From Macrostomum lignano (Eukaryota), in contig NIVC01001817.1 in NCBI GenBank assembly GCA_002269645.1, forward strand, positions 1 to 64,000: 64,000 bases of DNA, written 5' to 3'. Below the pieces are notes generated by a model that was not told where the DNA came from, did no database searches, and worked only from the letters and a program-made list of their open reading frames with translations. A program made the translations under genes and the position numbers. Below, piece by piece: positions 14,414 through 16,773 of this stretch. Within the stretch, counting starts at the first letter, position 1; each line of letters begins with the position of its first letter.

Positions 14414-14587
14414 GAGACGGGAAGCAGAAGGAAGGCGCGCACAGGCGCGAAGGCGTGAGGAAGCAATCCCATTGGAAGAAAGGAATTGAGTGCGGAGAGC
14501 CAATGAGAGCGCGTTATTTGGAAATTTGCTTGTCTAAGCAAATCGGAGGCCACGATCCCTCTTCCGGGACCCCTCCCCGGAGAGGCC

Positions 14588-14594
14588 TATATAA
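14588..14594 (+). promoter_or_regulatory. Candidate internal TATA box for Gypsy ORF3
   Basis: TATATAA lies about 70 nt before the ATG at 14660. CCAAT is at 14500-14504 and ATTGG at 14471-14475. Confidence 0.5.
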
Positions 14595-14659
14595 GCAAGA
14601 CCCCTGACGCCCCGGAAGCCCCACAGATTTCCAGAGAGACCGAGAATTTCGGAAGAGCA

Positions 14660-16267
14660 ATGAGTGAAGAAGAGGATTTTTCGTGGCTTAGAGAATTACT
14701 CGATATTGAGGATCCATTTGATACGTTCGATGGAATTGATAGTACTACGGCCGATAGGGCCAACGAACCAGCCGAAAGGGCGAATGCAGCAGCCGAAATG
14801 GCTAACGCACCAGTCGAAGTGACAAGCACAACAGTCGAAATAGACAGCAGAGCGGCCGGCATGGCAAACACGGAAGCAACAGCCGACACTGGCAGTAGTG
14901 AGGCAGCTGGCACGAGCGCCACCACGGCAGCAACTGCAGAAGTTGACAATCGCAGTACGGTCCCAAAGCGGCCGCCCATCAATGATGGTCAAGAGCTGGA
15001 GGCGCCCGAGCGACAGCCTACGCAACCATCGAAGCCTGGAGGCCGGCTGCGATCTGTCGTAAAAAGGGTCGGCTCGCCAGTGCAAGCGCCCACACAGCCT
15101 AAGCGAGCAGCCCCTTCAAAGATTCCGGTGCCACAGGCAGCTGAGAATCGGGCTGCTATTTTGCGGCGACAGGCTGCGAAGGCACCAGAGGCGAGCGCCA
15201 CGGCAATGGCTCGGCGTCCAACAGAGGCGCGCTCCACTATAATGATGCGGCTCGGCCCGGCTGTACGGCGGATTCTGCCGCGGACCCCGCTGCAAGAGCG
15301 ACAGCCGACACAGGCGACAGCACACTCAAGCCGCCAGCGGCAGCCTGCTCCGCGGAAGCGCCCTCAGCGTCGTCCGCCGCAGTCAGCGCCAACACAGCAG
15401 CTGCCGCCAGCTCAGCAGCTGTCACAGCAGCCCCCGCAGCAGCTGACGCCAGCGCCGCACTCACAGCAGCCGTCGCCAGCTCAGCAGCTGTCGCAGCAGT
15501 CCCCGCAGCAGCCGACGCCAGCGCCGCAGCCACAGCACCCGCCGTCACAGCAGCCGATGCCACCGCCGCCACCACCGCCACAGCCTCATCGCCAACAGCA
15601 GCAGCGGCGCCGTCAGTTGCCAGTCAAGCAGCCGCCGCAGCAATCGACGCCAGCGCAGCAGCCGCCGCAGCAGCTGCCGCAGCCGATGCAAGTGCTGCAA
15701 CCACCGCCAGTACCTCAGCCTCCGCCGCCGCCAGCGCAGCCGATACAGCCGCAGCAGCCGTCGCCAGCGCCACAGTCACAGCAACCACCGCAGCCGATAT
15801 TAACGGTGCCTCCATCATCAAACGCTGCTTGCGGCATGGACGCGAACCAGGCGCAATTTCAAGTTCAACCACAATCGAGCCAGTTCCCTCGTCCGGCTGA
15901 TGTCAATGACTTCGGTGCCAACTTGAGCCGGGCTCTGGCTGAAATACCCGAAGGCCGCCATGCGCACTTTAAGCGAATGATAGCCCTCATCAAGGCTTAT
16001 TTGATGCGAATTGCCAACGTGCGTCTTGACCGCGCTCTGCCGCAACGGGCGCATATTTGGCCAGTACTACAGATGTTGATGAGCAGCTACACGCCCGAGC
16101 AAGCAATTGCGGCATGGCGACGAGCGGTCGCCTACACTCTCCACGCGCTTCAGCAGGCGGGCCACCCGTACTACGGGATCCTCCTGCGTATCGAAGTACG
16201 CTGGATGGGAGATCTTCTCGGCTGGACGGACGAGCGTGGGCTACCAGAGGAGTTTAATATGAACTAA
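14660..16267 (+). CDS. Gypsy extra ORF3, 535 aa, unknown function (acidic N-terminus, P/Q-rich linker, helical C-terminal domain)
   Basis: Intact ATG-to-stop ORF between pol and the 3' LTR. No signal peptide or TM segment is visible, so it is not Env-like. Confidence 0.75.
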   Translation: MSEEEDFSWLRELLDIEDPFDTFDGIDSTTADRANEPAERANAAAEMANAPVEVTSTTVEIDSRAAGMANTEATADTGSSEAAGTSATTAATAEVDNRSTVPKRPPINDGQELEAPERQPTQPSKPGGRLRSVVKRVGSPVQAPTQPKRAAPSKIPVPQAAENRAAILRRQAAKAPEASATAMARRPTEARSTIMMRLGPAVRRILPRTPLQERQPTQATAHSSRQRQPAPRKRPQRRPPQSAPTQQLPPAQQLSQQPPQQLTPAPHSQQPSPAQQLSQQSPQQPTPAPQPQHPPSQQPMPPPPPPPQPHRQQQQRRRQLPVKQPPQQSTPAQQPPQQLPQPMQVLQPPPVPQPPPPPAQPIQPQQPSPAPQSQQPPQPILTVPPSSNAACGMDANQAQFQVQPQSSQFPRPADVNDFGANLSRALAEIPEGRHAHFKRMIALIKAYLMRIANVRLDRALPQRAHIWPVLQMLMSSYTPEQAIAAWRRAVAYTLHALQQAGHPYYGILLRIEVRWMGDLLGWTDERGLPEEFNMN

Positions 16268-16773
16268 TACAGGTGACTTTGCCAAATATTAACATTTGCA
16301 ATATAATTCTGCCTCTGCAATTTACCGTAAAAATTTTACAAATTAGTAGTGTGTGTTCATCCTTTAATAAAATTGCTTAGCCTTCTGCTTATTCATATAT
16401 TTGCTGGCATTTGTGCTCCATTTTTTTATTGTGCTACCTATAAAATTGCTTATCCAATTGCTACTGTCTAACTTTGTGTTTTTGCTTACTCATTAAAACC
16501 ACTTCACATTTGTTTTATCATCTACACCGTTTTATTCACCATAACTGTTTGAACTTTGTGCGTGCATCCATATTTAGTTCACACTTTCCGTATTTAGTTT
16601 ATGACTGTCACATTTTCTGTGCACCTAATTTCGCGCTTTTATATTCCATTAATACTCACATTATGTTGTATTTTTGTTAGGCGTGCGTTATAGACTACTC
16701 ATTGTATCAAATAGAATAATTTTCTCACTTTTTATTTTTCTTCCATTCGAAAATTATCCTTAGGGAAGCCAGT

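Follow-up and report, generated by a model that had tools for sequence, protein, structure and literature searches.

The third open reading frame (ORF3) of one Gypsy lineage in Macrostomum lignano, its 3' untranslated region (3' UTR) and the U3 part of the long terminal repeat (LTR) move as a single cassette between elements, and this cassette exchange is the main new result of the present analysis. One carrier lies in the window, by which we mean the whole stretch of 64,000 nucleotides analysed. ORF3 was revealed to be a conserved accessory gene throughout this lineage, with a clear history of cassette swapping and with a C-terminal domain (CTD) under purifying selection; the family is real and conserved, has an unrecognised fold, and is apparently undescribed.

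As summarized in Table 1, the window element possesses paired LTRs, a target duplication, a primer binding site (PBS), a polypurine tract and a pol whose Pfam domains follow the Gypsy order protease-RT-RNase H-integrase, and was assigned on these features to the Ty3/Gypsy LTR retrotransposons. The initial annotation had called it a young Gypsy element, and the LTRs (99.87% identical, with a single indel between them) and the 4-bp target duplication agreed well with this; the empty site (joint 7790/17532) was present in two sequencing runs. In three sister copies, pol forms one open frame of 1616 aa, unlike the three-frame pol of the window copy. We tentatively take the PBS to be of the tRNA-Leu type, and no matching tRNA gene was found at the 3 of 333 genome-wide pattern matches examined. 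Four short motifs looked up with regard to the Gmr1/Osvaldo clade were absent from supplement 5 of PMC12801592.

Table 1. Features of the ORF3-bearing element in the window
Feature	Positions	Strand	Basis or remark
Target duplication, 4 bp	7791-7794 and 17532-17535		Flanks the element
5' LTR (TG...CA)	7795..8551	+	LTR comparison, empty-site joint
Primer binding site	8555..8566	+	Putative tRNA-Leu type
gag, 321 aa	8648..9613	+	Weak Retrotrans_gag match, E 0.034
pol (protease, RT, RNase H, integrase)	9565..14413	+	Pfam; three frames in the window copy
CCAAT box, NF-Y-like context	14497..14507 (CCAAT at 14500)	+	Predicted internal promoter
TATA box (TATATAA)	14588..14594	+	Predicted internal promoter; start predicted near 14618
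ORF3, 535 aa	14660..16267	+	Single frame, free of stops and frameshifts
Acidic amphipathic N-terminal helix (activation-domain-like, export-signal-like)	14660..14719	+	
Conserved middle motifs (PxRxxTRP-type, basic cluster, R-x-x-L-L-x-x-Q-A)	14996..15250	+	aa ~113-197
Pro/Gln spacer, length-variable	15365..15814	+	aa 236-385
Helical C-terminal domain (CTD), conserved	15902..16264	+	No known family or fold
T-rich 3' UTR	16268..16761	+	Travels with ORF3
Polypurine tract	16762..16773	+	
3' LTR	16774..17531	+	U3 part co-inherited with ORF3

Several side observations were made around this element. The 3' end of the LTR (8430-8575, 17410-17531) contains tandem degenerate copies of an 'LTR end plus primer binding site' unit, three of them in the window, and a 17-base PBS-type pattern has 333 exact genome-wide matches, often as pairs or triplets 60-90 nt apart. 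At the end of Pol (14330-14413), a YNxR...CxCxLKRL helix following a long acidic tract is conserved in most of the clade. The element interrupts what looks by eye like a mariner-type transposase relic on the minus strand (7740-7794 and 17532-17930), and an unrelated Gypsy element has left an integrase relic, 30% identical, at 18476-19300 (minus). Two related ORFs at 1860-2822 and 47476-48204 (minus), with a weak QRICH1 match (E 1.5e-5 for the first), are probably Crypton-like elements, and pieces of a host AASDH/ACSF4-like gene (AMP-binding, beta-propeller) occur at 49483-53007.

ORF3 begins 246 nt behind the pol stop, and its description in the initial annotation as an intact frame without frameshift, with an acidic N-terminus, a Pro/Gln-rich region and a helical C-terminal domain of about 120 aa, held throughout. 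The first 30 aa carry a net charge of -10, and across the 19 intact alleles aligned, the first 32 aa carry -8 to -12 in all 19. This alignment demonstrated three conserved modules with variable spacers between them, namely, the acidic helix, a middle block, which the initial annotation had missed and which displays PxRxxT[RQ]P in 16 of the 19 alleles, and the CTD. The CTD was modelled by AlphaFold as a five-helix bundle (pLDDT 88), and its invariant residues D457, P461, E512, W515, W522 and P529 remain invariant across 31 alleles. The highest 19-residue hydropathy of ORF3 was 0.66, so that, in agreement with the initial annotation, neither a transmembrane (TM) segment nor a hydrophobic signal peptide is present; this low maximum and the acidic N-terminus also set ORF3 apart from env or fusion glycoproteins. 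The Pro/Gln tract (36% Pro, 31% Gln) proved to be a mere length-variable spacer: three sister copies have lost 246 nt of it and other copies 42 or 69 nt, always in frame, its composition differs in other families, and it is almost missing in P0009, an unnamed library protein from outside the M. lignano assembly. The earlier interpretation of ORF3 as an accessory regulator thus survived as regards a conserved non-env accessory gene, while its proposal of a condensate former was weakened. A transactivator or silencing suppressor, which it had also proposed, is still the preferred guess.

The CTD also lacked a recognisable family, as had been noted. Pfam gave no family above the cut-off for 31 members, NCBIfam and PDB sequences gave no usable match, and no credible match to the AlphaFold model was obtained by Foldseek against PDB and BFVD folds or by the VIA structure search, in which the best Z was 7.7 for the CTD and 5.8 for the fused form of sister clades described below. 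Cullin-repeat and REV1_C rows stayed below any useful threshold, and Mutator/ISL3 transposases, hinted at by Atlas, showed low recognition and did not recur with the fused form. The CTD alignment contains no HPD motif, the 31 members gave no DnaJ match in Pfam, and no heat-shock elements were found near ORF3 or within the window element.

The last 134 aa of ORF3 gave at least 150 genome matches of 29-100% identity, 150 of 268 candidates having been scored, and 40 loci chosen for spread were fetched. At 29 of these 40 loci, the ORF stands behind an RT or integrase of the same clade, and 36 sit inside LTR elements; seven are LTR-bounded elements of ~5-7 kb with a truncated gag and without pol, and four are disrupted. 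When 10 further clade members were chosen by their integrase alone, nine possessed the CTD and the tenth the N-terminal half. An HMMER scan of 1.84 billion proteins yielded eight matches at E up to 0.001, of which five were M. lignano entries and one was P0002, the other two being repetitive proteins close to the threshold; the library matches were M. lignano predictions or unnamed proteins. Among the latter, P0009 contains all three modules with short spacers, and its best match in the assembly is below 50% identical, that of its N-terminally shorter form being no higher than 46%. Since the M. lignano assembly is described as redundant in the available part of PMC12801592, identical copies may be haplotypes.

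The accessible text of PMC12801592 contains no mention of 'ORF', and no description of the ORF3 family was found in the literature searched; an earlier classification paper and Repbase/Dfam entries may annotate these ORFs. Four gene identifiers likewise had no mention in the literature and no row in supplements. Two annotated M. lignano proteins of 118-119 aa, P0005 and P0010 (Mlig026206), correspond to the CTD alone and may be fragments of elements or domesticated copies. Tandem elements were observed at L073, L078 and G000:C1098, where a gag lies ~1.1 kb behind ORF3 and one LTR is apparently shared. The pol-less chassis (L047, L051, L054, L066, L068, L186-L201) carry a conserved mini-Gag of their own of ~195 aa, consisting of the gag N-terminus and a Cys/His knuckle-like end, 55-98% identical mutually and 30-40% identical to autonomous gag.

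To judge from substitution rates, this conservation reflects selection on the protein. In six related pairs of close CTDs, dN/dS was 0.15-0.32, and the pairs L052/L199 and L183/L185 gave ~0.2; deeper pairs showed dN of 0.1-0.3 at dS above 1.7, and no pairwise value exceeded 1 (L067 and L069 were left out of the CTD trees and of dN/dS owing to frameshifts). The values across the family, which the initial annotation had proposed to check, were accordingly well below 1, and its view of ORF3 as an accessory, non-env gene was borne out by conservation across families without an env or host match in the databases and loci examined. We are nearly certain that ORF3 is functional at all. The notion of a decayed or passenger sequence, such as an env relic or a captured host exon with no present function, is largely refuted and barely credible: many ORF3 copies do carry stops or frameshifts, but the residues invariant in 31 alleles, dN far below dS, in-frame indels, a confident fold, the presence of all three modules in P0009 outside the assembly, and the lack of a TM segment or signal peptide all argue against it.

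Elements of sister clades, whose integrases are 55-59% identical, were found to have a helical domain in the same slot. In L081, L083 and L084, it begins 1-4 nt behind the pol stop, and in L088-L090, as well as at 10 of the 18 further loci that gave a match, a set from which four clade-D rows were left out, it lies in the integrase frame. Profile comparison with the window-clade CTD gave P values of 0.0008 and 0.002 for the two sister types, with scores of 24 and 27 that exceeded all 50 shuffles each and the reversed control, whereas the two sister types compared with each other (B vs fused) gave P 0.09, within shuffles. The fused type shares the helix order (AlphaFold pLDDT 87), and its top 50 VIA rows have 14 in common with the list of the CTD. 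The sister-clade domain is thus probably homologous to the ORF3 CTD. The separate (A+B) and fused (C+D/E) forms constitute sister groups with support of 88/92 and 90/98, and the fused-form CTDs are neutral (median net charge -1, against +4 in the window clade). Here too the domain departs from its integrase, the sister tails showing integrase dS of 0.03-0.4 while CTD dS is above 1.1. No fused-form homolog outside the M. lignano genome was seen among 7995 candidates, which is weak evidence. The integrase tails of L089, L090 and L162-L178 share a conserved [VIF]IDLT and a WxxLxxxL helix, and are otherwise divergent and disordered, making up 300-400 aa of Pol.

Such an arrangement would be expected if the CTD were an integrase- or particle-associated targeting module supplied in trans in the window clade, and both the occurrence of the probable homolog in the integrase frame and the profile scores point in this direction. 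This putative role is nevertheless highly unlikely in our estimation, as pol-less elements keep ORF3, ORF3 has promoter motifs of its own, the CTD falls to 40-50% identity on an unchanged integrase, and only weak homology links it to the fused form (P 0.002, and 0.09 for B vs fused).

The exchange itself was apparent from abrupt drops of identity close to the promoter or start of ORF3. Three relatives of the window element are 93-95% identical to it up to ~14665-14685, which marks the 5' edge of the cassette in this family, and 54-57% identical thereafter; in four other pairs, identity drops from 95-97% to 52-64% at -89 to -108, and the borders of group 3 lie further upstream, at -119 to -418. 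L056 and L058 differ by an RT dS of 0.04 and an integrase dS of 0.02, while their CTDs are 66% identical at saturated dS, and L056 and L050 (RT dS 0.03) have CTDs only 44% identical, again with saturated dS. Because pol dS is saturated between sub-clades, the synonymous sites of pol are free to vary, and recombination rather than rate would therefore explain this contrast between gag-pol and ORF3. Exchange of this type, termed inter-element recombination or LTR swapping, was reportedly treated by Du et al. in 2010.

Identical CTDs occur on both autonomous and pol-less elements: that of L187 shows no difference from those of L051, L186 and L188, and that of L052 none from those of L191 and L192, and two more alleles are nearly identical across the two kinds. 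These elements form natural 2x2 swaps, in which the ORF3-UTR-LTR part is 97% identical between L187 (autonomous) and L188 (pol-less) and 96% between L052 and L191, and the chassis is 93% identical between the autonomous L187 and L052 and 91% between the pol-less L188 and L191. Because several of the alleles do not differ from those of autonomous elements, the presence of ORF3 on pol-less elements may be due to recent hitch-hiking. In close pairs, U3 identity tracks CTD identity, a co-inheritance that can be expected from adjacency or linkage alone. ORF3 is not locked to one U3, as L044 and L045 have LTRs 99-100% the same and CTDs 80% identical at a dS of 1.8, and L052/L054 are similar. The 3' UTR is T-rich (40-52% T) in 22 of 22 elements; the 3' stretch of the window copy described earlier as AT-rich (16268-16773) contains 68% AT and 43% T. 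Template switching joins the R-U5 of one RNA to the U3 of another, according to the available part of PMC6894440. A short ORF3 mRNA as universal recombination donor was considered and rejected, as it fits breakpoints from -49 to +14, but not those from -95 to -418.

Upstream of ORF3, the CCAAT and TATATAA motifs pointed out in the initial annotation are present, and TATATAA is the sole one between 7700 and 17600. RRCCAATVR occurs in 12 of 23 upstream regions (shuffles: mean 1.3, max 6), and TATAWAW is present in 10 of 23 (mean 0.9, max 4), the 23 regions being not independent since several share one chassis; both motifs are thus enriched over shuffles. Plain CCAAT did not exceed its shuffled controls (12 observed against a mean of 6.8 and a maximum of 14), and TATAWA was absent within 700 nt in all six group-3 elements scanned. 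The window element and L033 have the TATA box and its downstream context in common, though their CTDs are 48% identical, and 11 of 11 group-2 elements have in common a different box of 21 nt, located immediately 5' of the TATA position. Contigs from four runs guessed to be RNA cover ORF3 and pol and are uninformative on start, strand and level; a contig of run X1 spans the TATA region without a break, and one of run X5 begins at 14637 with a gap upstream.

The putative product of ORF3 is likely to enhance the expression of its carrier elements. That the gene is kept by elements without pol, and is passed on together with the 3' UTR and U3, is most simply explained if it acts on elements of the same type. 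By analogy, we tentatively regard ORF3, at slightly less than an even chance, as a putative cognate transactivator or anti-silencer that resembles foamy Tas or VANC in logic. In such a scheme, the CCAAT and TATA boxes would drive a short ORF3 mRNA from the predicted internal promoter, the basic motifs would carry the protein into the nucleus, the CTD would recognise the matching U3, either directly or through a factor bound to it, and the acidic helix would recruit co-activators, the product being a nuclear activator by which LTRs of the matching type would be switched on or relieved of silencing. Template switching in reverse transcription would move the cassette between chassis, and old alleles would persist if each performs best with the U3 that it matches and if host silencing misses the rare types. 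A DNA-binding fold or motif was not recognised in ORF3 in Pfam, PDB, BFVD or VIA, and the neutral CTDs of the fused probable homologs argue against a conserved nucleic-acid surface. A stricter lock-and-key version is rather doubtful: the putative ORF3 alleles would activate LTRs of their own type only, by a hitherto undescribed fold that an integrase tail also possesses, and many ancient allele-LTR pairs would be maintained by frequency-dependent selection and shuffled onto a common gag-pol chassis, so that non-autonomous elements would have to acquire the entire pair in order to be expressed.

The main rival to the transactivator reading is Rev-like RNA export, which we consider unlikely: ORF3 would be a Rev/Rex/CERV-like shuttling adaptor, its CTD binding cognate 3' UTR/U3-R RNA and its N-terminal helix serving as a CRM1 NES that exports genomic RNA. 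Under the pattern definitions that we assumed, 13 of 19 alleles, the window allele included, show an NES pattern within their first 32 aa, against 3.7 expected from shuffles, and 12 of 19 show an NLS-like motif, both being matches to patterns only and to a loose one for the NES. The helix that the initial annotation had likened to an activation domain thus also fits an NES. The net positive CTD of the window clade, the T-rich 3' UTR of all 22 elements, the inclusion of the RNA's 3' end in the cassette, and the precedent of CERV of Cer1 in the available part of PMC10309623 are likewise in line with export. Against it, six of the 19 alleles lack the NES pattern yet retain the acidic helix, no arginine-rich motif is conserved across alleles, and no splicing of the element that would need an export factor was seen.

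It is distinctly improbable that ORF3 instead works in a general way against a host factor for restriction or silencing, as its antagonist or decoy, the ORF3 alleles being specificities for host variants and not for LTR types. This putative function would suit the deep, old alleles on young chassis, the change of ORF3 on a constant LTR in L044/L045, and the SUMO-interacting-type motif (SIM), under the definition that we assumed, in 11 of 13 fused tails of the sister clades. The same motif is, however, absent in all 19 ORF3 alleles of the window clade, pairwise dN/dS never rises above 1, and a freely diffusible antagonist would be borrowed, rather than kept, by pol-less elements.

Complex retroviruses are well known to have trans-acting regulators, which have rarely been demonstrated for animal LTR retrotransposons. 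The comparisons that follow refer to those parts of the cited sources that were available to us. Foamy viruses make a 3' transactivator from an internal promoter (PMC12789967), and ORF3 is similar to this Tas/Bel1 (PMC12789967, PMC8003144) in being a 3' accessory gene located after the structural genes and before the 3' LTR, with a promoter of its own, here a predicted one, and an activation-domain-like segment. It differs in that no sequence or fold match to Tas was found in Pfam, PDB sequences, BFVD or PDB folds, its acidic segment is N-terminal, its alleles are exchanged, it occurs on pol-less elements, and its predicted promoter, located behind pol, remains part of the chassis and is therefore not allele-specific, unlike the Tas loop. 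VANC of the Arabidopsis VANDAL elements (PMC5735166) is a similar case of a transposon factor diverging together with the non-coding sequence of its own family; VANDALs are, however, plant DNA transposons, no homology was found in Pfam, and cognate specificity has been shown for VANC and would only be presumed for ORF3. CERV of Caenorhabditis elegans Cer1 and HIV Rev (PMC10309623) are accessory nuclear proteins with an NLS, to which ORF3 compares by its NLS-like motif and candidate NES, but CERV arises from a spliced mRNA sharing sequence with Gag, and no homology was found.

As a third ORF behind pol, the window ORF3 resembles the non-env ORF3s of bdelloid LTR retrotransposons (PMC5408684), and the env of Tor (PMC4402516) is a precedent for an internal promoter; the bdelloid and Tor products are enzymes or membrane proteins, whereas the window ORF3 is mostly disordered with an unrecognised helical domain. 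Inter-element recombination (PMC6894440) likewise lets U3 and 3' parts change partners in reverse transcription, also between autonomous and non-autonomous elements. The ORF3 cassette departs from known LTR swapping in that the unit includes a protein gene with dS-saturated alleles and has its border at the promoter or start codon.

What this lineage provides is a new family of domains, numerous natural alleles together with their matching LTRs, and natural 2x2 swaps, in a host in which, according to the available part of PMC12801592, transgenesis and LTR reporters are already in use. The findings bear on whether retrotransposons encode cognate activators or anti-silencers, and on why non-autonomous elements retain one protein gene while losing pol.
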